Source: Erysipelotrichaceae bacterium OH741_COT-311
GTDB taxonomy: Bacteria > Bacillota_I > Bacilli_A > Erysipelotrichales > Erysipelotrichaceae
Direction of reading: 5' to 3'
Assembly (NCBI GenBank): GCA_003858585.1
Contig: RQZE01000003.1
Span: 1 to 32,000, forward strand
Length of the DNA stretch: 32,000 nt
The position numbers and the translations under genes were made by a program. The notes under the pieces were generated by a model that was given only the letters and a program-made list of their open reading frames with translations, had not been told where the DNA came from and did no database searches. Positions 5,430-30,951 of the stretch are shown piece by piece (the stretch's first letter is position 1; each line of letters starts with the position of its first letter).

Positions 5430-5523
5430 AATTGTGAATTATTATGGTTTTCATAACAAATAGAAGTGCGTTATAATTAGAATGACAATTTGTATTTTTT
5501 ATATAAATAAGGAGGATAGATTT

Positions 5524-8500
5524 ATGAAAAAGCTAAAGCTTACAAAAATCTTACTTACAATACTTTCAATGTTGTTGATGATTCCATATCAACTTACTTA
5601 TGCAAACAATGAATTGGAGGCTGTTGAAGTCATAACTTCAAAGGTTGTAAGTGATGATTTACTAGAAGCAACGATACATGTGGAAATCCGTCATGATGAT
5701 ACGGTTACCATACAATCAATTGAAAAGCCAAATGCAGAAGTAGAGGCTTACAATCAACAAGAAGTAACCTATCTTGTTAACGAAAATGGGGCATATACAT
5801 TTAAGGTTCATTATGTAAAAAATGATGCGTTAGATGTGATATTAACAAAAGAAGTTACGGTTGAAGTAAATGAAATTGAAGATATATCGTTTACAAATAT
5901 GTTTCCGGCTAATGTTGAAAATGGTAAAGGGATTCAAGTGAGTTTTAAAACACCAAAGGTAACGGAAGAGTTTGCCAATAATAACTTTGTAAATGCGATT
6001 GTTATTGATGGGGCAAATTTAGTACAAGATACTGCTGAAGATTTAACATTAGAAGTGAGCATTCCTGCATTATTATTTAAATATCCACAAAGTAATTTGG
6101 ATTCACAACATTTTATTGATCATTTTGCAGTTGTTACAGGAAATGTTGGGAAAGTGTTAGAAACAGTTGAAGATCTTGCTACAAACACAACTACCATTCG
6201 TGTGAAATTAAACCGTGTAACTAGAACAACAAGAATTGAAATGCCATTTAATTTTAGTTTTACTGATCGTATTACACCACTTGATTTGCGCCTTGCACCA
6301 TCTGTTAAAGTGGTAAATGCAGATAATGCAGTGTTATCAAATGCAACGGATGTTGAATATCAAGTGAAGTATGAAGAACGTACAGCGATTAAAAAGATAT
6401 ATGGTTCGAAAGAAAATGGTGCTTTAGTACCGGCAGGGACTGCCTTGGCAGGAAATCCTAATTATGTAGATCCAGATAATGCAGAATATGTCATGTTTAC
6501 TTATGATTATGAATATGGTAAAGGTGCTCAGCCTCCTGCTCGTTTAGATGAAAAGGTAGTGATTACCGATCGTTTACCGGAGTATGTAAACCATGAAGGA
6601 CAAACAGTGAAGGCTCACTTTAACCCTGCATTAAATCCCGGATGGACAAAGAAGCCAGATGGTAGTGTAGAATATACAGTGAATTTAGATAAATCATTGT
6701 ATGTTGGAGATATACGAAAAATTGATATTCGTGAACAAATCAGTCAAGTTACATTATTCTTATCATTTCCTGGTGCTCCAGTGAAGGAAGGTGGAGCTCT
6801 TAAAAACTATGTTAACAATGTAAGTATGAGTGTTACAGGGATTAATGGGGCAACAGAAACACCAAAAGTGTTAACAGATGATATTACGTTTAACTTAGAA
6901 GCAAAGCCAAATGGTGGAAAAGGAATGTTTTCAAAGTATAATATCTTTGATCGTATTCCATATGATCCCTATAGTTTATATGCAGAAGTATTACGTTTCG
7001 GTATGCATGCTACGAATAACTTAACTTCTGATTTAACAGATTTCAAAATAGTAGAAGATGCGACAAAATTTGATTCACGTTTATATTTTTCAAAAGTAGT
7101 GAATGTCAAAGAAGGTGAACGTGATGTTTCAAATGAGTATCAAGTAAAAGCTTATAGAACAGATGGTACTTTTACAATCTTTGAAATTGGTAGTGAGTTA
7201 AATGGTGCAACGCAAGCCAAAATTAATGATTATGCAAATCAAGTAAACAATGGTAGCTTGGTGATTGCTGATGTGCCAAATGATGCTGTAGTAGAGTATG
7301 TTAAGTTTGAAATTGGACGTAAAGACAATGCGCCATTAAAATCAGGGGCTACAGTGATACAAACAGAAGTAGAAATGCGCTTTAAAAATCCATTTCATGT
7401 TCAAGGAACTTTAAATTCAAGAGATATTCGTAATGAAGCAAGCTTAGTTGGAAACTATAAAGATGTTTCGAATACAGTAAAATCAATAAAAGTAGATTCT
7501 TATGCTGCAAAATTGTTTATACCAGTAGATGAAAAAGTAGTATTAATAAAATCTACAAATCAAGGAAATGCAACTAAAATTAATGATACAATTAATATCT
7601 TTAATATCTCGTTAGATTTGAGAGACTTAAGTAAGAACCGATTGATTAAAGATGGTACATTTATTGATTTATTACCGGCAGGGTTATCTACGATTGGTAC
7701 AACATATGTAATGCCACTGAATAATAGTAATCCTTATTTTAAAGGATATGAAATTATTAAAGATTATAAAGGTACAGGAAGAGATGCCATTAAGATTAAT
7801 CTAAATACATTTAGAATGAAAGATCTTAAAACAACAAACGGAAGGACACCTTATGCGTTAGATTTTGCGATTCGAAACATTAAAATCAATGATAAGATCA
7901 TTCCAACTTCAGCAGAAACACCCACAAACAACAATGATAACCATGTGTATTTCTTTGAAGGAAATGGACAAAGTTTCCCGGATAGCATTGGTTCACAACA
8001 AAAAGTAGTTGATACATTGGACATCAATGATAATGGTAAAACAGATGATTTTATTTTAGAAGCGACTTCAAAAGTTGTGGCACAAGTTCCAAGTCTAGTA
8101 CGTAGTAATAAGTATATTCGTTCTATAGAAGGGTCAACAATCAATGATTCGGTGGATGAAACTCGTCCTTGGACAGATCGTATTATGACAAATTATGATA
8201 GTGGAGTAAGTGGTGGACGCTTCCAATATAAATTAGAAGTGAAAAATTATACAGCAACTCCAACAGAAGGCATAGTGCTTTATGATGTTATTCCAAATGT
8301 AAATGATAAGAAGAGTGATGGTACTCCTAGAAATAGTGCGTTTAGAAATCGTTTAGTTGCACCATTAAGAATTGAAATAGATGGTATTGATGTATCAGCA
8401 GATTATGATATTTTCTATACAATAGATGCACCGGCTTATGATGCAACAACAGGTGTTCCAACTTCAAATTGGCAATTGGCAGTCGCTAATTATGAAGATG

Positions 8501-9138
8501 TTAAAGCGATAAAAGTTGTATTAAAACCGGGTAAATCATTGCCAGCCTTTAAGATTTTAAATGTCATTATGGATATGAAGGCACCTAAGTATGAAAATAC
8601 CTCTTTAGCAAATACAGAAGCAATTGGTAGTTTTCAAGTTATCTATGATGGCTCTGTAGCTTATGCGGAAGCAGACATGGTTTACAATGCGCTTCCGGAC
8701 ATTAGAAATATAACTGTAAAAAAAGAGTGGATTAACGCTACTGCACAAAAGATTATAGTGGATTTGTTACAAAATAATGTTGTAATCGCTACAAAAGAAT
8801 TATTAGAAACAGAAACAACATTAGTCTTTGAACATTTACCGATTAATGATCCAACAGGTATTCCATTTGCCTATCGTGTTGTTGAAAGATCTCTTCCTGG
8901 GTTTAAAACAACGTATGAAGGGGATATTGAAACAGGTATTGTTATCAAAAATGAAAAGGCAAAACCTGTAAATCCTAATGTACATCCAAATCCTCCGATA
9001 GCTACACCAAAGAAACAAGTAAGGATTAAGATACCAAAAACACAAGATAACAGTGTACCATATTTTTATGGTATGATGGCAATGCTTTCAATGGTAGTAT
9101 TGCTTGTAATGAAAAAAACATTAAAAAATCATAAATAA
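5524..9138 (+). CDS. Large cell-surface protein (adhesin-like) with signal peptide, C-terminal CnaB-type domain and a sortase-type anchoring signal
   Basis: - AAGGAGG RBS lies 8 nt before the ATG at 5524.
- Signal peptide MKKLKLTKILLTILSMLLMIPYQLTYA.
- About 1100 aa of beta-rich sequence.
- CnaB-like segment ITVKKEWINA...FAYRVVERSLPGFKTTYEG...IVIKNEK (about 8707-8960).
- Pro-rich stalk, then IPKTQD + hydrophobic stretch + KKTLKNHK tail. Confidence 0.85.
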   Translation: MKKLKLTKILLTILSMLLMIPYQLTYANNELEAVEVITSKVVSDDLLEATIHVEIRHDDTVTIQSIEKPNAEVEAYNQQEVTYLVNENGAYTFKVHYVKNDALDVILTKEVTVEVNEIEDISFTNMFPANVENGKGIQVSFKTPKVTEEFANNNFVNAIVIDGANLVQDTAEDLTLEVSIPALLFKYPQSNLDSQHFIDHFAVVTGNVGKVLETVEDLATNTTTIRVKLNRVTRTTRIEMPFNFSFTDRITPLDLRLAPSVKVVNADNAVLSNATDVEYQVKYEERTAIKKIYGSKENGALVPAGTALAGNPNYVDPDNAEYVMFTYDYEYGKGAQPPARLDEKVVITDRLPEYVNHEGQTVKAHFNPALNPGWTKKPDGSVEYTVNLDKSLYVGDIRKIDIREQISQVTLFLSFPGAPVKEGGALKNYVNNVSMSVTGINGATETPKVLTDDITFNLEAKPNGGKGMFSKYNIFDRIPYDPYSLYAEVLRFGMHATNNLTSDLTDFKIVEDATKFDSRLYFSKVVNVKEGERDVSNEYQVKAYRTDGTFTIFEIGSELNGATQAKINDYANQVNNGSLVIADVPNDAVVEYVKFEIGRKDNAPLKSGATVIQTEVEMRFKNPFHVQGTLNSRDIRNEASLVGNYKDVSNTVKSIKVDSYAAKLFIPVDEKVVLIKSTNQGNATKINDTINIFNISLDLRDLSKNRLIKDGTFIDLLPAGLSTIGTTYVMPLNNSNPYFKGYEIIKDYKGTGRDAIKINLNTFRMKDLKTTNGRTPYALDFAIRNIKINDKIIPTSAETPTNNNDNHVYFFEGNGQSFPDSIGSQQKVVDTLDINDNGKTDDFILEATSKVVAQVPSLVRSNKYIRSIEGSTINDSVDETRPWTDRIMTNYDSGVSGGRFQYKLEVKNYTATPTEGIVLYDVIPNVNDKKSDGTPRNSAFRNRLVAPLRIEIDGIDVSADYDIFYTIDAPAYDATTGVPTSNWQLAVANYEDVKAIKVVLKPGKSLPAFKILNVIMDMKAPKYENTSLANTEAIGSFQVIYDGSVAYAEADMVYNALPDIRNITVKKEWINATAQKIIVDLLQNNVVIATKELLETETTLVFEHLPINDPTGIPFAYRVVERSLPGFKTTYEGDIETGIVIKNEKAKPVNPNVHPNPPIATPKKQVRIKIPKTQDNSVPYFYGMMAMLSMVVLLVMKKTLKNHK

Positions 9139-14944: not shown

Positions 14945-17199
14945 TTTAATTTCCAAATATCTTGGTTGTAATCATTGATGGTACGATCACTTGAGAAGAA
15001 TCCAGCCTTAGCAGTATTCACTAATGACATACGTTTCCATTTTTCAGTGTTTTCATATTCATCAAAGACATGTTCTTTTGTTTCGATGTAGTTTTTTACA
15101 TCTAACAGTGTCATAAACCAATCTTTATTGATTAATTCATTATGTAAAGCTTGTAGGTGTTCTTTGCTTCCAAGTTGAAGTAACTCATCACTTACAATGA
15201 AATCTACTAATTTTTTAATCAATTCATCTTGTTGATAAAGAGTTTTTGAGCTGTAGTCATGATGGTTGTAGTGATCAATGACTTGTTGACTACTTTCTCC
15301 AAAGGTATAGATATTGTCATTTCCAACTAATTGAGCAATTTCAACATTAGCACCATCCATAGTTCCAAGTGTGATTGCTCCATTTAACATGAATTTCATA
15401 TTTCCTGTTCCTGAAGCTTCTTTTGAAGCTAAAGAAATTTGTTCTGAAATATCACATGCCGGAATTAGTTGTTCAGCATAAGTTACATTGTAGTTTTCAA
15501 CCATTACGACTTTTAGGTACTTACTTACTACAGGATCGTTATTGATTAATTTTGATAATGTAATAATTAAGTGAATAATGTCTTTTGCAATGTAGTAAGC
15601 CGGAGCAGCTTTTCCTCCAAATAAAATGGTAATTGGACGTTTTGGTAAGTTACCATTTTTAATTTCTAAGTACTTATAAATGATATATAAAGCATTCATT
15701 TGTTGACGCTTATATTCATGAATACGTTTAATTTGAATGCAGAAGATACTGTTTGGATCCAGTTCAATATTTTCATGTTTTTGAATATAGCTTGCTAATT
15801 TACGTTTATTGTTTTGTTTGATGTCATATAAGTGATCTAGAACTTCTTGATTATCATAATATGCAAGTAGTTTTTCCAGTTCGTTGGCATCTTTTTTCCA
15901 TCCTTCTCCAATTAAAGAAGTAATGTAATTTGCAAGCTCAGGGTTACAGTGCATTAACCATCTTCTAAATGTAATACCATTTGTCTTGTTGTTGAATTTA
16001 TCCGGATAAATATCATAGAACGGCTTTAATTCAGAATTTTTTAGGATATCTGTATGTAATGCAGCAACTCCGTTAATAGAATATCCATAGTGCATATCAA
16101 TACGAGCCATGTGTACACGATCTTGTTCATCAATGATTTGTACATCAGGATTTGAAAAGATATAAGCGACTAAGCTATCTAATGCTTCAATGATTGGCAT
16201 TAAATGTGGAACTACTTTTTGTAAGTAACTACGTGGCCATTTTTCTAAGGCTTCTGATAGAATCGTATGATTTGTATAGCATGTTGTATTTGATACAATG
16301 TCAATAGCTTCCTTCATACGAATTCCTTCTTGCATTAATAAACGTATCAATTCAGGAATGACTAAAGAAGGGTGTGTATCATTAATTTGTACTACAACAT
16401 GTTTATGTAAATCACGTAAGTTATGTCCTTTTTCTTTTTCTTCTTTGATGATTAATTGTGCAGCACTTGATACCATAAAATATTGTTGATAAATACGTAG
16501 TAAGTGGCCTGCTTCATCACTATCATCTGGATATAAGAATAACGTTAAGTTTTTTTCAAAGTTTTCTTTATCAAAAGAGATTGATTGATCATGAACTAAT
16601 GTTTCATCTACATTCGCTAAATCAAATAAATGTAATTTATTTACTCCATTGTCATAACCAATAACATCAATGTCATACATATTCGCTGTTACAACTTTAT
16701 CTGCAAGTTGTACTTGGAAACTAACATCTGTTTTGTTTAACCATGACTTTGGTGTCATCCATTCATTTTTTATTTCATGTTGTAAACCTTGTTTAAATTG
16801 TTGTTTAAATAATCCGAAGTGGTAGTTAAGTCCAACACCATCACCATTTAAGCCAAGGGTTGCAATAGAATCAATAAAGCAACTTGCAAGACGTCCAAGT
16901 CCACCATTTCCCAAACTTGGTTCTTGTTCCAACTCTTCAATTTCAGTAATATTTTTGTTGTTGGATTGTAATACTGTTTTTAGTTCATCATAAATTCCTA
17001 AGTTAATTAAATTGTTTGATAACAACTTACCAATTAGAAATTCTGCTGAGATGTAGTAAAGTTTGCGATTACCTTCAATAGGTTTTTTATTGAGCGTATA
17101 TTCTTTCACTAAATTTAATGTAGCATCATAAAGCTCTTGATTACTAGCTTCGCTAATAGGCTTGTTTAAATGCTTTAATAAGTTTGTTTCTAAGTTCAT
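14941..17199 (-). CDS. glgP: Alpha-glucan (glycogen/maltodextrin) phosphorylase, GT35
   Basis: 752 aa; pyridoxal-phosphate site [15 protein letters not shown]; [13 protein letters not shown] motif. AGGAG RBS lies 8 nt before the ATG at 17199; the track's GTG at 17208 falls within the RBS region. Confidence 0.92.
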
Positions 17200-17231
17200 A
17201 AACCACACTCCTAGGATAATAGATTACCACA

Positions 17232-17245
17232 GGAAAACGTTTTCC
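17232..17245. promoter_or_regulatory. Perfect 14-bp palindrome GGAAAACGTTTTCC, a candidate LacI-family (MalR-like) operator
   Basis: Central-CG palindrome in the divergent glgP / sortase intergenic region. A near-identical copy lies at 20850-20863, upstream of the binding-protein gene. Confidence 0.5.
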
Positions 17246-17299
17246 GCAAGTATTGGACATTTGTGCTATAGTATAGTAATAGTAAGTAAGGAAGTAGAT

Positions 17300-17986
17300 A
17301 TGAAAAAATTAACTGTTGTAATAATCGTAATGGTAATTTTTGTGACCAGTATGATTTTAAAGAAGCCTAAGAAACAGTATGGAGTGGCATTTCATCCAAC
17401 CATACCTATCATTGATTTTATAGAAATGTATAAACCAAGCGAACTGTTTGAAAAAAGTTCAAGCATTAATCAGGATTTTTATGGTGTAATACGTATTGAA
17501 GGTGTTATTGAAGAGGCAGTAGTGTTAAGTAAAGATAATGAAGAATACTTACATATAGATATTCATGGTCATTCGGATATCATGGGAACGGTCTTTATGG
17601 ATTATCGAGTTGAGTACGGAGATCAAAATGTTATTTTATATGGACATACCTATCCAGGTAAAAAAGATATGGTCTTTTCGAATCTAAATGATTATAAAGA
17701 CTATGCTTTTTATCAAATGCATCCAACCTTTACTTTTGAAACAAAACAGGGGATTGATACGTATGATATTTTCAGTGTCTATGTATGGGATCCTAGTGTC
17801 TATCCATATTTCTTTGATGTCTCATTTCATTCAGAGATATTTAAGGAACATATAGAGCATATGAAAAAAAGCTCAATGTATCCCATTGAACTTGAAGTAA
17901 ATGAAGAAAGTCAATTACTAACTCTTGTTACATGTAATAGTGACAATATCGATCAAAGAGTTATTTTAGTTGGAGTTAAAAGATAA
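17300..17986 (+). CDS. srtB: Class B sortase
   Basis: - 228 aa with an N-terminal TM anchor.
- Class B-like block DNEEYLHIDIHGHSDIMGTVFMDYR.
- Catalytic His in NVILYGH, Cys in LLTLVTCNS, Arg in QRVILVG.
- AAGGAAG RBS before the ATG at 17300. Confidence 0.8.
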   Translation: MKKLTVVIIVMVIFVTSMILKKPKKQYGVAFHPTIPIIDFIEMYKPSELFEKSSSINQDFYGVIRIEGVIEEAVVLSKDNEEYLHIDIHGHSDIMGTVFMDYRVEYGDQNVILYGHTYPGKKDMVFSNLNDYKDYAFYQMHPTFTFETKQGIDTYDIFSVYVWDPSVYPYFFDVSFHSEIFKEHIEHMKKSSMYPIELEVNEESQLLTLVTCNSDNIDQRVILVGVKR

Positions 17987-25955: not shown

Positions 25956-27395
25956 ATGAGAAAAGCTGGGATTTTGATGCCGGTTGCATCTCTTCCGTCT
26001 AAACATGGAATTGGTGATTTTGGTTATACTAGCTATACATTTATAAGTTTATTAAAGAAAAGTGGCATGAAAATATGGCAAATCCTCCCATTAAATCCAC
26101 TTGGATATGGAAATTCACCTTATCAACCATATTCAAGTCATGCAATGGATGAATTGTACATTTCATTAGATTTATTAAAAGAAGAGAAGTTAATTAAAAA
26201 TGTAGCTGACTTTAATAGGGATGCTGAAATCATTGATTATGATGCTGTAAGAAGCTTTAAGCGTTCATACTTAAAAGAAGCGTTTGATAACTTTAAACCA
26301 AATTCAGAGTATCAAGAATTTATACAAATGGATTGGGTTTACAAATATGCAGTGTTTTTAACCTTAAAGAAAGCCAATGAGTTAAAGTGTTGGGTTGATT
26401 GGGATCATAGTTTCAAAGATTGGATTAAGGGGAATGATTTAGATTTAGCACCATATCAAAAAGACATTGAATATGAAATGTTTATCCAATATGTGTTATA
26501 TGCTCAATGGTTAAAAGTAAAAGCATTTGCAAATCAGCAAGGGATAGAAGTGATGGGGGATATTCCAATTTATGTTGGAATTGACAGTGATGATGTCTGG
26601 ACAAATCAAAAGAATTTTTTACTAGATGATGATGGACGTCCAACATTTATTGCAGGTGTTCCGCCGGATTACTTTAGTGCTACAGGGCAAAGATGGGGAA
26701 ATCCATTATATAATTGGGAAGTTTTAAAAGAAGATGGTTTTGCGTTTTGGCTCGAACGATTAAGTTATAATAATAAATTGTTTAATATCATTCGTATTGA
26801 TCATTTTAGAGCGTTTGATACGTATTGGAAGATTCCATCAAGTTGTGAAACGGCCATAGAAGGGCAATGGGTGGAAGCGCCAGGATATGCATTGTTTGAT
26901 GAAGTGTTTAAACACTATCCAAACATGCAGATTGTTGCTGAAGATTTAGGGGATTTAAGGCAAGAAGTACTGGTATTAAGAGACCATTACCAATTTAAAG
27001 GAATGCGTATCGTACAATTTTCATTTAATCCAACCTACATGGAAGAAGATCGTGAAAATCTTGTTATTTATACAGGTACTCATGATAATCAAACCATTAA
27101 TGGTTGGTATCAAACCTTCAAACCGGAACAAAAGAAACAAGCTAAAGCCTATTTTAAAAAACATGGTTTTAAAAAGCCATCTGTTATTGATAATTTTATT
27201 GACTATACATTAGCAAGTAAGGCTTCTTTAGCTATCATACCATTGTTTGATGTATTAAAGTTAAATGATCAAGCAAGATTAAATACTCCAGGAACGGTTG
27301 GTAATCCAAACTGGCAATGGAAGATTAAGGATTATGTAGGCTTTAAAAAAGCTGTAAAGAAATTACATAAAGCAGTTTTAAAATATAATCGATAA
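25956..27395 (+). CDS. malQ: 4-alpha-glucanotransferase (amylomaltase, GH77)
   Basis: 479 aa; MRKAGILMPVASLPS, NPLGYGNSPYQPYS, IRIDHFRAF, AEDLG and GTHDN motifs typical of MalQ. Confidence 0.92.
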   Translation: MRKAGILMPVASLPSKHGIGDFGYTSYTFISLLKKSGMKIWQILPLNPLGYGNSPYQPYSSHAMDELYISLDLLKEEKLIKNVADFNRDAEIIDYDAVRSFKRSYLKEAFDNFKPNSEYQEFIQMDWVYKYAVFLTLKKANELKCWVDWDHSFKDWIKGNDLDLAPYQKDIEYEMFIQYVLYAQWLKVKAFANQQGIEVMGDIPIYVGIDSDDVWTNQKNFLLDDDGRPTFIAGVPPDYFSATGQRWGNPLYNWEVLKEDGFAFWLERLSYNNKLFNIIRIDHFRAFDTYWKIPSSCETAIEGQWVEAPGYALFDEVFKHYPNMQIVAEDLGDLRQEVLVLRDHYQFKGMRIVQFSFNPTYMEEDRENLVIYTGTHDNQTINGWYQTFKPEQKKQAKAYFKKHGFKKPSVIDNFIDYTLASKASLAIIPLFDVLKLNDQARLNTPGTVGNPNWQWKIKDYVGFKKAVKKLHKAVLKYNR

Positions 27396-27421
27396 GATGT
27401 AAGCTAATTACATCTTTTTTC
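27395..27421 (+). terminator. Rho-independent terminator of the mal operon
   Basis: AGATGTAA-GCTAA-TTACATCT followed by TTTTT, starting at the malQ stop codon. Confidence 0.7.
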
Positions 27422-27455: not shown

Positions 27456-27477
27456 ATCAAAATTATTGATGTATAAT
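27456..27477 (+). promoter_or_regulatory. Candidate promoter -10 (TATAAT, 27472-27477) preceded by a 7-1-7 inverted repeat ATCAAAA-T-TATTGAT (27456-27470)
   Basis: The inverted repeat matches at 6 of 7 positions per arm and has Fur-family box geometry. It sits directly upstream of the COG0523 gene. AT-rich context makes a chance match plausible. Confidence 0.3.
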
Positions 27478-27502
27478 AGTAGTATTGAAAAGAGGGAAAA
27501 GT

Positions 27503-28699
27503 ATGAAAGTAAGTATTATTTCAGGATTTTTGGGTGCTGGGAAAACAACGTTAATTTCAAAGTTGATTTCCGAGCAACTTTATAAAGAAAAGGTTGTATT
27601 AATTGAGAATGAATTTGGTGAAATTGGTATTGATGGAGGTTTCTTGAAAGAAGCTGGGATTGATATTAAAGAAATGAATTCCGGTTGTATTTGTTGTAGT
27701 TTACAAGGAGATTTTAAAGAAGCCTTGCAAAAAGTGATTGATACCTATCATCCAGAACACATCATTATTGAACCAAGTGGAGTTGGTAAATTAAGTGATG
27801 TTGCAAAGGCTGTAAAAGAAATAGAAGATTTAAAAGTAAATACATTAACAACCGTGATAGATTGTAAAAAAGCAGTTGTGTATTCAAAAAACTTTAAAGA
27901 GTTTTATGATGATCAAATTATACATGCAAGTTGTATTATTTTGAGTCGTAGTCAAGATGTTACACAAGAAAAGTTGGAAGAGGTTATTGCATTACTTAGA
28001 AGTAAAAATGCACACGCACCAATTATTACAACAAATTGGGAAGAATTAAGTGCAAATGATATTTTAAGTGTAATGGATCAAACTTATACTCTAAAAGTTA
28101 AAACATCTAAAGATTATGATACATGTGAGGGAGAAGAATGCTGTTGCCATCATGAACATGATCACAAGCATGGAGAATGCTGTTGCCATCATGAACATGA
28201 TTACGAGCATGAAGAATGCTGTTGCCATCATGAACATGATCACAAGCATGAAGAGTGTTGTTGCCATCATGAACATGATCACAAGCATGAAGAATGCTGT
28301 TGCCATCATGAACATGATCACGAGCATGAAGAATGCTGTTGCCACCATGGACATGATCACGATCATGAAGAATGCTGTTGCCACCATGAACATGATCACA
28401 AGCATGAAGAGTGTTGTTGTCACCACCATCATGCAGAAGATGTCTTTAAGAGTGTTGGTTTTGAAACTGTAAATAAGTATGATAAGTTTCAATTAAATGC
28501 AATTTTATCAAATCTTGATGATTCTATCTTAAGATGTAAGGGAATTGTTTCTGGTGTTGATGGTAATTGGTGGCATTTTGATTATGTACCTGATGAGTTT
28601 GAAATTCGTAAAGGCTCTTCAAATTATACGGGTTTAATTACAGTTATCGGAAAAGATTTTGATGAAAAGAAAGTGAAAGAAATCTTTGGGGTCAAATAA
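27503..28699 (+). CDS. COG0523-family G3E GTPase (CobW/ZigA/YciC-like metallochaperone) with a giant Cys/His repeat insert
   Basis: - AGAGGG RBS before the ATG at 27503.
- Walker A GFLGAGKTT.
- Diagnostic CxCC motif GCICCS (27685-27696).
- IIIEPSG Walker B.
- 103-aa Cys/His-rich insert.
- CobW_C-like C-terminus (LRCKGIVSG...LITVIGKDF). Confidence 0.88.
   Translation: MKVSIISGFLGAGKTTLISKLISEQLYKEKVVLIENEFGEIGIDGGFLKEAGIDIKEMNSGCICCSLQGDFKEALQKVIDTYHPEHIIIEPSGVGKLSDVAKAVKEIEDLKVNTLTTVIDCKKAVVYSKNFKEFYDDQIIHASCIILSRSQDVTQEKLEEVIALLRSKNAHAPIITTNWEELSANDILSVMDQTYTLKVKTSKDYDTCEGEECCCHHEHDHKHGECCCHHEHDYEHEECCCHHEHDHKHEECCCHHEHDHKHEECCCHHEHDHEHEECCCHHGHDHDHEECCCHHEHDHKHEECCCHHHHAEDVFKSVGFETVNKYDKFQLNAILSNLDDSILRCKGIVSGVDGNWWHFDYVPDEFEIRKGSSNYTGLITVIGKDFDEKKVKEIFGVK
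28133..28432 (+). repeat. 39-bp in-frame tandem repeat, about 7.7 copies, encoding EECCCHHEHDHKH units
   Basis: Units start at 28133, 28172, 28211, 28250, 28289, 28328, 28367 and 28406. Copies 1 and 3 are identical; the others differ by 1-5 substitutions, several of them synonymous. Confidence 0.95.
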
Positions 28700-29634
28700 T
28701 GCCGGTTTTAGTGTATTTAGTAACGGGATTTTTAGATAGTGGAAAGACCAGTTTGATTAAAGAGACTTTAATGGATAAAGAGTTTAATCATGGTGAAAAA
28801 AACTTAATCATTAGTTTTGAACAAGGAGAAGTAGAATACGAAGAAGCATTTTTAAAACAAACCAATAGTGAAGTTGTTTATGTCGATGATGTAGAACTTT
28901 TTACAGAGGAATTAATGCATGAATATGATACAGTATATCAACCTAAAACAGTTATTATTGAGTTTAATGGGTTAAGTAATGTGACAGAATTTGTTCAACG
29001 TAAGATGATTCCGGGATGGATGATTGTACAGGTTTTAACGACTATTGATGCAAGTACATTTAATGTGTATATTGCAAATATGAAGTCTATTATTTATGAA
29101 CAAATACGTTATTCAGATTTAATTATTTGTAATCGTTGTAATGAAGATACCGATTTGGATTATATGCGTCGTAATCTAAAGGCTTGTAATATGGCTTGTC
29201 AGATTGTTTATGAAGATGAGCAGAACAACATTATTCCGTTTAATCCAAGTAAGCTTGTTTTTAAAGAAGAAGATGGTATGATTCATGTTAAGGATGAAGA
29301 TTTTGGTTTATGGTATATGGATGCCCTAGATCATCCTGAACATTATGAAAATAAACGTATACGTATTAAAGGGATGTATGCTTCAAAGATTGACGGTTAT
29401 AAAAAATCGTTTGTCTTGGGACGTTATGCTATGGTATGTTGTGCTGATGATACGGCTTTAATTGGACTTACAGTAACAGGAGTTAAATTAGATGAATTAA
29501 CTTTGCATCAATGGGTTAGTGTAGAAGGTGTGATTCATTTGGTAGATGCTGAACATGGTAAGGTTTGTGTGTTATATGCTGAAAAGATTTACCATGATCA
29601 CCCAATAGAAAATCCATTTGTGTATTTTAGTTAA
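28699..29634 (+). CDS. Degenerate G3E-like P-loop protein lacking CxCC, fused to a C-terminal CC-A-D-D domain (DUF1980/YcgQ-like by recollection)
   Basis: - TAATG overlap with the upstream gene.
- Walker A-like GFLDSGKTS and VIIEFNG.
- No CxCC at the aligned position (EQGEVEYEE).
- C-terminal FVLGRYAMVCCADDTALIGLTV...WVSVEGV...ENPFVYFS. Confidence 0.65.
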   Translation: MPVLVYLVTGFLDSGKTSLIKETLMDKEFNHGEKNLIISFEQGEVEYEEAFLKQTNSEVVYVDDVELFTEELMHEYDTVYQPKTVIIEFNGLSNVTEFVQRKMIPGWMIVQVLTTIDASTFNVYIANMKSIIYEQIRYSDLIICNRCNEDTDLDYMRRNLKACNMACQIVYEDEQNNIIPFNPSKLVFKEEDGMIHVKDEDFGLWYMDALDHPEHYENKRIRIKGMYASKIDGYKKSFVLGRYAMVCCADDTALIGLTVTGVKLDELTLHQWVSVEGVIHLVDAEHGKVCVLYAEKIYHDHPIENPFVYFS

Positions 29635-29635
29635 T

Positions 29636-30127
29636 ATGAAGAGTTGTTTTTATTACCGTAGTGACCTTGGTCTTATTGGTATTATGGAATATGATGGTAA
29701 GATTGCAGGTGTGACAGTAGATGAATCGTTTGATGATGAGATTGAAGTGGTTGAAACTTCATTAATACGAGATTGTTATCTACAAATTGTAGAATATTTA
29801 GATGGTAAGCGTACTACCTTTGAGTTACCTTTGTATTTAAAAGGAAGTGAGTTGCAGTTGAGTGTTTATCATAGTTTATTGAATATTGCATATGGTCATA
29901 CATGTAGCTATAAAGAGGTAGCACAGAATTATAAAAAGGATTATAAGGGGTATCAAGCAGTTGCACAGATTATATCAAAAAATCCAATTCCGATTATTGT
30001 TCCATGTCACAGAGTGATTTATAGTGATCAAACATTGGGAGGTTATGCCTATGGGCAAGATATAAAGCGTTACTTATTGATGCTAGAGGAAAGAGTGAGT
30101 AAGGAAGGATCATTATGTACATTTTAG
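29636..30127 (+). CDS. ogt: Methylated-DNA--protein-cysteine methyltransferase
   Basis: 163 aa; active site IPIIVPCHRVI; the upstream YGHTCSYKEVA block is typical of Ogt/MGMT. Starts 2 nt after the preceding stop. Confidence 0.88.
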   Translation: MKSCFYYRSDLGLIGIMEYDGKIAGVTVDESFDDEIEVVETSLIRDCYLQIVEYLDGKRTTFELPLYLKGSELQLSVYHSLLNIAYGHTCSYKEVAQNYKKDYKGYQAVAQIISKNPIPIIVPCHRVIYSDQTLGGYAYGQDIKRYLLMLEERVSKEGSLCTF

Positions 30128-30951
30128 AGTTAATTAAAGTCATTGTTTTAGGGATTGTTCAAGGGATTACAGAGTGGTTACCAATTAGTAGTACAGGGCA
30201 TTTAATCTTATTAAATAATCTGTTATCGTTAAAGATTTATAGCGATCCAATGATGAATAAAGAATTCATAGATATGTTTACAGTAGTCATACAATTAGGT
30301 TCTATTTTAGCCGTTTTATTGTTGTATTTTCATAAACTTAATCCATTCTCTCGTTTTAAAAACACAGCACAGAAGAAAGATACCATCTTATTATGGGTTC
30401 ATGTCGTGATTGCCGCATTGCCGGCAGCGATTGTTGGGTTATTGTTTGATGATTTTATTGATGGTGTATTATATAATTCATTAACAGTTTCCATTACTTT
30501 AATCGTATATGGTGTTTTATTTATCGTTGTAGAGCAGATGAATAAAAAATCCACAATTACGACTTTAAAGACGATGTCTTTTCAAGTAGCATTTATCATC
30601 GGTTTATGTCAAATGTTAGCGTTAATACCTGGTACTTCTCGTAGTGGAGCTACCATTATCGGAGCTATTTTAATTGGTTGTTCACGTAGTGTGGCAGCAG
30701 AGTTTTCCTTCTTTTTAGCTATACCGATGATGTTTGGCGCTAGCTTATTAAAGTTGGTTAAAATGAAAGTTGCCTTAACGCTAGCTAGTGGATTTGCTTT
30801 AATGTTAGGAACGTTTGTGGCTTTTATTGTTTCTGTCTTTGCGATTCGTTTCTTAATGAAGTTTATTAAGAAGTATGATTTCAAGCCGTTTGGTTACTAT
30901 CGTATTGTATTGGGGGTTATTGTGCTTATTTCATATTTTTTAGGAGGTTAG
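30115..30951 (+). CDS. uppP: Undecaprenyl-diphosphate phosphatase (BacA/UppP)
   Basis: 278 aa polytopic membrane protein; GITEWLPISSTGHL and PGTSRSGATIIGA motifs. Overlaps ogt by 13 bp. Confidence 0.92.
   Translation: MYILELIKVIVLGIVQGITEWLPISSTGHLILLNNLLSLKIYSDPMMNKEFIDMFTVVIQLGSILAVLLLYFHKLNPFSRFKNTAQKKDTILLWVHVVIAALPAAIVGLLFDDFIDGVLYNSLTVSITLIVYGVLFIVVEQMNKKSTITTLKTMSFQVAFIIGLCQMLALIPGTSRSGATIIGAILIGCSRSVAAEFSFFLAIPMMFGASLLKLVKMKVALTLASGFALMLGTFVAFIVSVFAIRFLMKFIKKYDFKPFGYYRIVLGVIVLISYFLGG

Follow-up and report, generated by a model that had tools for sequence, protein, structure and literature searches.

A G3E NTPase domain fused to a DUF1980_C domain, conserved next to a COG0523 gene in Erysipelotrichales, Lachnospiraceae and Oscillospiraceae: a candidate two-subunit metallochaperone

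To our knowledge, COG0523 proteins are ubiquitous and for most of them no client is known and no mechanism settled, and the DUF1980/YcgQ/ScfB proteins have virulence and acid-stress phenotypes and no known biochemistry. COG0523 proteins are defined by an invariant CxCC motif in the G-domain (PMC2770081), and their C-terminal domain, the αβ-sandwich CobW_C, carries an invariant arginine finger in an RxKG motif, through which it acts as the protein's own GTPase-activating protein (GAP) and is able to act in trans (PMC13001444). YcgQ, ScfB and SMU.747 are accessory subunits of YcgR/ScfA permeases of the ArsP_1 type, and for ScfAB of group A Streptococcus and SMU.746/747 of S. mutans only acid-stress and virulence phenotypes have been described (PMC5584981). 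Here, we describe a gene pair in a 32,000-nucleotide stretch of DNA from Erysipelotrichaceae bacterium OH741_COT-311 (contig RQZE01000003.1, positions 1 to 32,000), referred to below as the window, in which a COG0523 gene, the partner, is followed by a gene for a protein that joins a G3E-type NTPase domain to a DUF1980_C domain, the fusion. The fusion thus physically links a COG0523-type NTPase domain with DUF1980_C and is obligately co-encoded with a canonical COG0523 protein. Both of its domains are already recognised by Pfam; we found no published study of the fusion itself in the literature on DUF1980, YcgQ, TIGR03943, COG3689 and COG0701.

The two genes and their parts are as follows, with residue numbers referring to the fusion protein and conservation figures, here and below, to 177 full-length members of the fusion family.

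27503..28699, + strand: partner COG0523 gene (Pfam cobW, E 2e-38; CobW_C, E 4e-6).
28133..28419, + strand: tandem repeat of a 39-bp unit (7.4 copies, 92% identity) that encodes the partner's linker, (EECCCHHEHDHKH)n.
28699..29634, + strand: fusion gene, encoding a soluble protein of 311 amino acids with a CxCC-less G3E NTPase domain and a DUF1980_C domain with a predicted oligonucleotide/oligosaccharide-binding (OB) fold.
28726..28749, + strand: P-loop (G1), GFLDSGKT, residues 10-17; Gly10, Gly15 and Lys16 99% conserved.
28819..28830, + strand: equivalent of switch I (G2), EQGE, residues 41-44; Glu41 98% and Gly43 99% conserved.
28957..28971, + strand: Walker B (G3) of the G3E type, IEFNG, residues 87-91; Glu88 99%, Asn90 98% and Gly91 94% conserved.
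29131..29142, + strand: G4 equivalent, NRCN in place of NKxD, residues 145-148; Asn145 and Arg146 99% and Cys147 88% conserved.
29269..29625, + strand: DUF1980_C domain, residues 191-309, with a predicted OB fold after a short helix (Pfam, AlphaFold2, Foldseek).
29422..29451, + strand: RYAMVCCADD, residues 242-251, an Arg…Cys-Cys-x-x-Asp motif in the loop between β2 and β3, a candidate metal site.

Two co-translated genes make up a conserved module, and the fusion is its second subunit. In the window, the ATG of the fusion gene and the TAA of the partner gene share their A (TAATG, read at 28699), which bears out the coupling at the partner's stop codon that had been claimed in an initial annotation made from the sequence alone, and a Shine-Dalgarno-like GGGG run lies 7 nucleotides 5' of this ATG, within the final codons of the partner (context ...GGGGTCAAATAATGCC). 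For the partner itself, the ATG at 27503 is preferred over a TTG at 27485 because of its Shine-Dalgarno spacing. A genome scan with one genome per species confirmed at least 584 relatives of the fusion among at least 600 matched stretches, from which 80 loci were kept, mostly from Erysipelotrichaceae (Solobacterium, Bulleidia, Holdemania, Dielma and Merdibacter), with some from Lachnospiraceae and others. In all 74 loci whose upstream sequence is long enough, the fusion gene is immediately preceded by a COG0523 gene in the same orientation, so that the expected conservation of the two genes as neighbours was found, usually with translational coupling. The same pair is present on a Vescimonas (Oscillospiraceae) replicon, and the arrangement therefore spans Erysipelotrichales, Lachnospiraceae and Oscillospiraceae. 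The distance from the partner's stop to the start of the fusion gene is between -8 and +4 nucleotides in 56 of 72 loci, with a one-base overlap of stop and start in 19, as in the TAATG of the window, and this tight spacing argues for stoichiometric co-production. When the flanking open reading frames of the 80 loci were clustered, no third conserved gene was found, no family being present in more than 12 loci.

The family is large and uniform. A search of 5.8 billion proteins gave 529 clusters, and all 120 matches listed share the two-domain architecture at a length of 311-316 amino acids. A profile of the C-terminal domain matched 2603 clusters (50% identity) at E ≤ 1e-3 and 840 at E ≤ 1e-10, and the best 150 of these matches all apparently belong to the fusion family; with 840 clusters at the stricter threshold, any function of the fusion would apply to much of the anaerobic gut Bacillota. 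Unusual architectures were looked for among 13 matches of odd length, which turned out to belong to this family and to be metagenomic gene calls that are chimeric or truncated. These numbers bear on the possibility that the fusion is a decaying duplicate, a pseudo-NTPase kept only by its linkage to the partner. The loss of CxCC, of the Asp of NKxD and of CobW_C would fit such a decay; against it stand the 840 clusters, conservation over the full length of the protein down to 35-40% identity, the invariance of the catalytic and Cys-Cys residues and the conserved translational coupling, by which this explanation is effectively refuted, and we give it next to no credence.

The N-terminal half of the fusion matches cobW (PF02492) over residues 5-168 with an E value of 7.6e-15 and 55 bits (Pfam cut-off 20.7). 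Its best matches in both sequence and fold are to YjiA, and the fold is also that of HypB and UreG. With this match, the motifs GFLDSGKT, EQGE and IEFNG and the YjiA/HypB/UreG fold, the fusion is a member of the G3E P-loop NTPase superfamily. The P-loop and the Walker B motif that had been claimed for it are present, the latter within VIIEFNG (residues 85-91), and the proposal that this half is a G3E/COG0523-derived paralogue without CxCC agrees with the Pfam match, with a family-profile alignment to E. coli YjiA and with a BLASTP match to the N-terminal domain of the partner (30% identity, E 2e-14). The earlier placement of EQGEVEYEE opposite the partner's GCICCS was wrong: in both the BLASTP and the profile alignment, EQGE pairs with the partner's switch I, NEFGE, and it is the β-strand VVYV (residues 59-62) of the fusion that pairs with the partner's CICC. 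No CxCC was found in the fusion protein or in any of the 177 family members, none of which has a Cys where the partner's CICC aligns. The stretch ICNRCNED had been taken for a degenerate G4, rightly so, as it aligns with TKTD of YjiA and keeps Asn145 and Arg146, and the fourth position, that of the guanine-specificity Asp, is Asp in only 37% of members.

When compared with the COG0523 proteins YjiA, ZigA, MigC, ZagA/YciC, CobW and ZNG1, the fusion is alike in its G3E P-loop, ExxG and switch-I E-x-G, whereas it lacks CxCC and the CobW_C domain with RxKG and has NRCx rather than NKxD at G4. Having neither CxCC nor CobW_C/RxKG, it is not a COG0523 member by the published definitions, and its NRCN also departs from the NKxD/TKxD that such a protein is expected to carry at G4. 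The Rv0106-type 'COG0523-like' proteins are likewise related to COG0523 and have no intact CxCC (PMC2770081); in Rv0106, the GTPase motifs are missing as well, whereas the fusion keeps them at at least 98%. All residues that handle phosphate and Mg are retained. As the catalytic NTPase residues are conserved at at least 98%, the fusion is under selection as a nucleotide-binding or nucleotide-hydrolysing protein, and the pattern as a whole indicates purifying selection on the nucleotide-handling residues in a protein from which CxCC and the Asp of NKxD are gone. The N-terminal domain is closer to the partner lineage (E ~1e-13) than to COG0523 proteins of zinc islands (E 1e-5 to 1e-6), consistent with descent from a duplicated copy of the partner gene. 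Two further observations concern this domain. At family positions 39-40, directly before the switch-I Glu, Cys is present in 40-49% of members (for example LLICCEEGEEEYD in Vescimonas), which may represent a relocated Cys pair beside switch I; the fusion of the window has Ser-Phe at these positions (28813-28818). There are also sub-threshold matches to NF041053, "CobW-related selenoprotein", by the partner (E 1e-22) and the fusion (E 1e-10), a hint that the nearest named relatives of the COG0523 partner lineage are short selenoproteins consisting of the G-domain only.

The partner shows the P-loop GFLGAGKT, switch I NEFGE, GCICCS, Walker B IIIEPSG, G4 SRSQ and RCKG in CobW_C and can, from these motifs, be assigned to the canonical COG0523 proteins, with P-loop, CxCC and CobW_C with RxKG all in place and an atypical G4. 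Among 70 orthologous partners, GFLG[AS]GKT, C[IV]CC and a linker rich in His, Cys, Asp and Glu are always present, and NE[FY]G[ED] is found at switch I in all but one; RxKG is present in both partners checked, those of the window and of Vescimonas. At G4, SR(S/T)Q takes the place of NKxD/TKxD across these 70 loci (in the window, residues ~145-148, 27935-27946), whereas NKVD and NKMD are found in the zinc-island COG0523 proteins encoded on plasmids of Priestia and Pseudalkalibacillus. The initial annotation had overlooked that the partner, too, is without NKxD. Both subunits thus have Arg in place of the G4 Lys and no specificity Asp (NRCx and SR(S/T)Q), and as neither keeps NKxD, the pair may not be restricted to GTP. 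The linker ranges from 33 to 157 amino acids with 0-24 Cys across the 70 orthologues and from purely His/Asp/Glu to Cys-rich, and with its 39-bp repeat it looks like a fast-evolving, repeat-driven metal-binding tract. Antisense or frame-shifted open reading frames at 28091-28492 and 28116-28472 are artefacts of this repeat.

The C-terminal half of the fusion matches DUF1980_C (PF21537) over residues 191-309 with an E value of 2e-17 and 64 bits (cut-off 25.9), and Pfam gave no match to CobW_C (PF07683), so that the view that this half is something other than CobW_C holds. The NCBIfam model TIGR03943 is matched in its C-terminal half only (positions 108-220 of 221), at 71.9 bits and thus below the cut-off of 88.8. 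The kinship with DUF1980/TIGR03943/YcgQ that the initial annotation had proposed was right, being borne out by PF21537, by the C-terminal half of TIGR03943 and by phmmer. Tyr216 and Arg242 are conserved in 100% of members and Asp208, Cys247, Cys248 and Asp251 in 99%; the two Cys are encoded at 29437-29442, as had been stated, and the claimed CC-A-x-D motif is conserved, Cys248 and Asp251 remaining invariant when the canonical membrane forms are included. The annotation had named two outcomes that would speak against its proposal, a C-terminal half without DUF1980 kinship or conserved Cys-Cys and a pair not conserved as neighbours; both were looked into, and neither was found.

Modelled alone by AlphaFold2, the C-terminal domain reaches a predicted local distance difference test (pLDDT) score of 90.5 and is predicted to form an OB fold, a five-stranded β-barrel (β1-β5) with a short helix between β3 and β4. 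A helix carrying DxDYGxWYMD precedes the barrel in the model, and the Cys-Cys lies in the loop between β2 and β3. In the model of the full-length fusion (pLDDT 87.3, predicted template modelling score 0.73), values below 50 are found only in the CCAD loop (residues 247-250). Foldseek matches of the C-terminal domain are all to generic OB folds, namely Ten1/Stn1, PriB, SSB and the anticodon-binding N-terminal domain of AsnRS, with E values down to 6e-5, TM-scores of 0.45-0.53 and 12-21% identity. A sequence-profile search of the PDB gave no solved homologue of the domain, only chance matches to WW domains (E > 0.1). RIKG (residues 222-225) was considered as a COG0523-like RxKG finger and rejected, since the Arg position varies between R, I and Q in the family. 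Judged by sequence, the module consists of a subunit A, a canonical COG0523 metallochaperone with CxCC, a variable His/Cys/acidic linker and CobW_C with RxKG, and a subunit B, the fusion, in which a paralogous G3E NTPase domain carries, in place of CobW_C, an OB domain from the DUF1980/YcgQ family, with the invariant Arg…Cys-Cys-x-x-Asp motif on a flexible loop of the modelled fold.

For comparison with the membrane forms of DUF1980, we used annotated plasmid records found by tblastn. These canonical proteins have three hydrophobic segments, a CxCGH loop and C-terminal motifs as in the fusion, and phmmer, queried with a canonical protein, finds the fusions in 65 loci (E values down to 5e-13). 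The canonical ARFGISCCAADA…W.H.KG…PYVY corresponds to GRYAMVCCADDT…WVSVEG…PFVYF in the fusion; GK-x-[IV], R-x-x-x-x-[C/H]-C-x-x-D, W-[VI]-x-[VI] and P-[YF]-V-Y are common to both, and in an alignment of the fusion with five canonical proteins, Arg242, Cys248, Asp251, Trp272 and Val308 are invariant. With this alignment and the PF21537 match, the fusion is a bearer of the R…CC..D…W signature of DUF1980_C. The likeness to YcgQ, ScfB and SMU.747 extends over the C-terminal 120 amino acids; unlike them, the fusion is cytoplasmic and NTPase-fused and has no transmembrane region, no CxCGH loop and no adjacent permease. It is not a full TIGR03943 protein, as it lacks the membrane half with its 2-3 transmembrane segments and an adjacent PF03773 permease and scores below the cut-off.

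Canonical DUF1980 genes always follow a permease gene. On Priestia aryabhattai plasmid p-LAD2, a COG0523 gene (GCICC, NKVD, RAKG), znuCBA, two permease/TIGR03943 pairs and ZinT stand together; another plasmid (locus L085) carries a COG0523 gene, a permease gene and a TIGR03943 gene, and other canonical DUF1980 genes adjoin P-type ATPase and HMA genes. In B. anthracis, yciC and the permease operon are divergently oriented, and both are bound by Zur (PMC6336718). For these canonical membrane forms of DUF1980 (p-LAD2, L085, B. anthracis), the association with permeases and COG0523 in zinc loci that had been drawn at the outset holds; it does not extend to the present pair. The second TIGR03943 paralogue of p-LAD2 (L086:7734-8585) has His-Cys (FGIIHCVAD) for Cys-Cys, a swap as expected at a metal site, and, as a separate observation, a DHDHDHNGDCSCGHSH loop after its second hydrophobic segment. 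One partner permease has an intramembrane PVCECAIVP motif (L083:2519-3358), and a C-x-C-G-H loop lies between hydrophobic segments 2 and 3 of the canonical DUF1980 proteins (L081/L083/L086); taken with the C-terminal Cys-Cys, these motifs resemble a relay of cysteine pairs that spans the membrane. The canonical DUF1980_C domain probably lies outside the cytoplasm, as judged by the positive-inside rule and by a linker rich in Ser, Thr and Pro.

This context raises the possibility that the fusion is a cytoplasmic accessory or gating subunit of a distant permease of the YcgR/ScfA type (ArsP_1, PF03773), in which it would replace the membrane-anchored YcgQ and couple metal transport to NTP hydrolysis and to the COG0523 partner. 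DUF1980_C is otherwise known only as a partner of a PF03773 permease (PMC5584981), and since canonical permease/DUF1980 pairs often adjoin COG0523 genes (PMC6336718), the fusion could be a Rosetta-stone link between them. NCBI names are divided: some of the soluble fusions are labelled "TIGR03943 family putative permease subunit" or "uncharacterized membrane protein YcgQ" (P0057, P0059, P0043), and others "GTP-binding protein". The fusion has no transmembrane-strength segment, its highest Kyte-Doolittle value in a 19-residue window being 1.43 (two canonical DUF1980 proteins reach 1.87 and 2.01), and we therefore take the permease and membrane labels for errors of annotation transfer. No homologue of three canonical permeases lies within ~6 kb in the 80 loci or anywhere in the 32-kb window; the score below the TIGR03943 cut-off and the absence of the membrane half point the same way, and the canonical C-terminal domain, probably extracellular, would be separated from a G-domain by the membrane. 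We therefore regard a role as permease subunit as distinctly unlikely.

The Cys-Cys-x-x-Asp of the OB domain is in our view a candidate metal-binding site, and several arguments converge on this: the motif is 99% conserved, it would lie in the canonical ligand-binding loop of the modelled OB fold, and it is common to the membrane DUF1980 proteins, a natural paralogue of which has His-Cys, a ligand swap typical of metal sites. Furthermore, canonical DUF1980 genes adjoin ZnuABC/ZinT/COG0523 genes or P-type ATPase/HMA genes, and their permeases and loops carry the CEC and CxCGH motifs described above. The statement that the fusion has lost metal binding is accordingly correct for CxCC and overstated for the protein, which has gained this conserved site in the fused domain. 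One might also suppose that the ligand of the OB domain is nucleic acid or some other non-metal, with the pair acting, for example, as part of a ribosome- or RNA-associated GTPase system, with the Cys-Cys as a structural element or a redox vicinal disulfide. The best structural neighbours of the domain are indeed nucleic-acid-binding OB folds; these matches are, however, at the level of the fold only (E ~1e-4, TM-score ~0.5, 12-21% identity), the protein is acidic (isoelectric point 4.7), its homologues in sequence are membrane-anchored permease partners in metal islands, and the natural His-Cys variant fits a metal site and not a disulfide. We consider a non-metal ligand very improbable.

We lean, at a little less than an even chance, towards the reading that the pair forms a heteromeric G3E metallochaperone in which the OB loop exchanges metal with the partner. 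The G3E relatives HypB and UreG dimerise on GTP, with metal at the interface. Like these homodimers, the two G-domains of the pair would form a nucleotide-dependent heterodimer. The Cys-Cys-Asp loop of the OB domain would bind a thiophilic metal, most likely Zn(II), and could serve as metal donor, acceptor or sensor for the CxCC and the linker of subunit A, and NTP hydrolysis would gate the direction of transfer or the release to clients. Lacking an RxKG finger of its own, subunit B would have to rely on dimerisation or on the C-terminal domain of the partner. The UreE-UreG and HypA/SlyD-HypB systems are alike by analogy only, in that a G3E NTPase works there with a metal donor or acceptor domain and a His-rich reservoir; here, the candidate donor/acceptor domain is fused to a second, CxCC-less G3E subunit, UreE, HypA and SlyD have no homology to the fusion, and no genes for a client enzyme lie near the pair. 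The known COG0523 proteins have been described as acting alone (PMC11672702), whereas the fusion is obligately paired.

Several points weigh against a heteromeric metallochaperone. His/Cys-rich tracts are also found in Ni and Co chaperones. The extracytoplasmic role of the canonical DUF1980_C may not carry over to the cytoplasm, and Arg242 and Lys219 are also conserved in membrane DUF1980 proteins and are therefore not specific for a GAP-like role. A phmmer search with three canonical permeases, extended to ZnuA and ZinT, found no homologues of any of these within ~6 kb in the 80 loci. Upstream of the pair, neither a Zur operator (core consensus of B. subtilis) nor a Fur 7-1-7 box was found in 70 loci at up to 3 mismatches. 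Lastly, COG0523 proteins are thought to be monomeric, and their C-terminal domain sterically disfavours dimers of the HypB kind (PMC11672702).

Regulation by Zur, Fur or AdcR was also approached through enriched k-mers and inverted repeats in the 70 upstream regions, in addition to the consensus sites, and no operator emerged. Inverted repeats were no more frequent than in shuffled controls (149 against 123 ± 18), and a palindrome of the window, ATCAAAATTATTGAT, considered as an operator, is not conserved in the other loci. The only motifs enriched 5' of the pair, in 60 loci, are a TATAAT(A) element and a Shine-Dalgarno sequence of the GAAAGAAGG type. Expression of the pair appears to be constitutive and not under Zur control. 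In the window, the region before the partner gene contains the following two features.

27395..27420, + strand: hairpin and T-run after the malQ-like gene, read directly as AGATGTAA-gctaa-TTACATCT and then TTTTTT.
27472..27496, + strand: likely -10 box TATAAT (27472-27477) and Shine-Dalgarno sequence GAGGG (27492-27496) of the partner gene.

Owing to its AT-rich stem, the hairpin is absent from the output of the terminator scan. It probably ends the maltodextrin operon, in which case the pair would have its own promoter.

Promoters that look constitutive, together with highly variable partner linkers that look suited to metal storage, would also fit a different role, in which subunit B is a metal buffer or store and a regulatory partner: its Cys-Cys-Asp loop would sense the load and modulate the GTPase of the partner in trans, or, in another form of this idea, the RxKG domain of the partner would activate subunit B and no metal would be passed on. 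Subunit B has no RxKG C-terminal domain and the partner has one, and such a domain can activate a G-domain in trans (PMC13001444). The sequence data cannot separate such a buffer from a hand-off of metal; the strictly conserved catalytic residues suggest, though, that subunit B itself hydrolyses nucleotide, and we think a purely buffering and regulatory role unlikely.

Returning to the heteromeric metallochaperone, a bolder version would be an obligate heterodimeric G3E machine of an undescribed kind, in which a canonical COG0523 protein works with a CxCC-less paralogue whose GAP-type C-terminal domain has been swapped for a metal-binding OB domain, recruited from the extracytoplasmic capture domain of a permease accessory protein, and which, ATP-driven or nucleotide-promiscuous, serves gut anaerobes as a constitutive intracellular relay or buffer for thiophilic metal. 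We find this account doubtful as a whole. If it were true, DUF1980_C would be a new Cys-Cys-Asp metal-binding OB module, and this in turn would provide a biochemical function for YcgQ/ScfB, the proteins of streptococci and bacilli with virulence and acid-stress phenotypes. As leads, the pair suggests that DUF1980_C is probably a Cys-Cys-Asp metal-binding OB domain and that a heteromer is probably the working form of at least one COG0523 subfamily. It is also experimentally tractable, with small genes, soluble proteins and the cultured carriers Holdemania filiformis DSM 12042, Dielma fastidiosa and Merdibacter massiliensis.

On the 5' side of the pair, the window contains a maltodextrin utilisation operon with a LacI-type regulator, amylases, an ABC sugar transporter and MalQ, and no metal-related gene was found by Pfam elsewhere in its 32 kb. 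On the 3' side, two genes follow.

29636..30951, + strand: ogt-like methyltransferase gene (probable ATG 29636, end 30127) and uppP/BacA (30115-30951), assigned by Pfam.

The probable ATG of the ogt-like gene is 1 nucleotide past the stop of the fusion gene, the ogt-like gene and uppP overlap by 13 nucleotides, and no terminator was detected before 30421; in this genome, the pair may be co-transcribed with them. They are not conserved members of the module, as uppP is found 3' of the pair in 9 of 80 loci and ogt in 2 of 80. In the 9 loci with uppP, it follows the fusion gene within ~10 nucleotides, and in ~11 loci (L048, L057, L059-L066 and L071; for example L071:4613-5017) a gene for a protein of 134 amino acids, which we take to be PPC/DUF296-like, abuts the partner's start; one sub-lineage may thus have its genes in a block of four. 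In 8 loci, an MntP-like gene lies ~1.7 kb downstream. The window also encodes a protein of 1218 amino acids with a C-terminal Cna_B domain (5482-9138) and a sortase (17162-17986), which appear to be surface-adhesin machinery unrelated to the pair.

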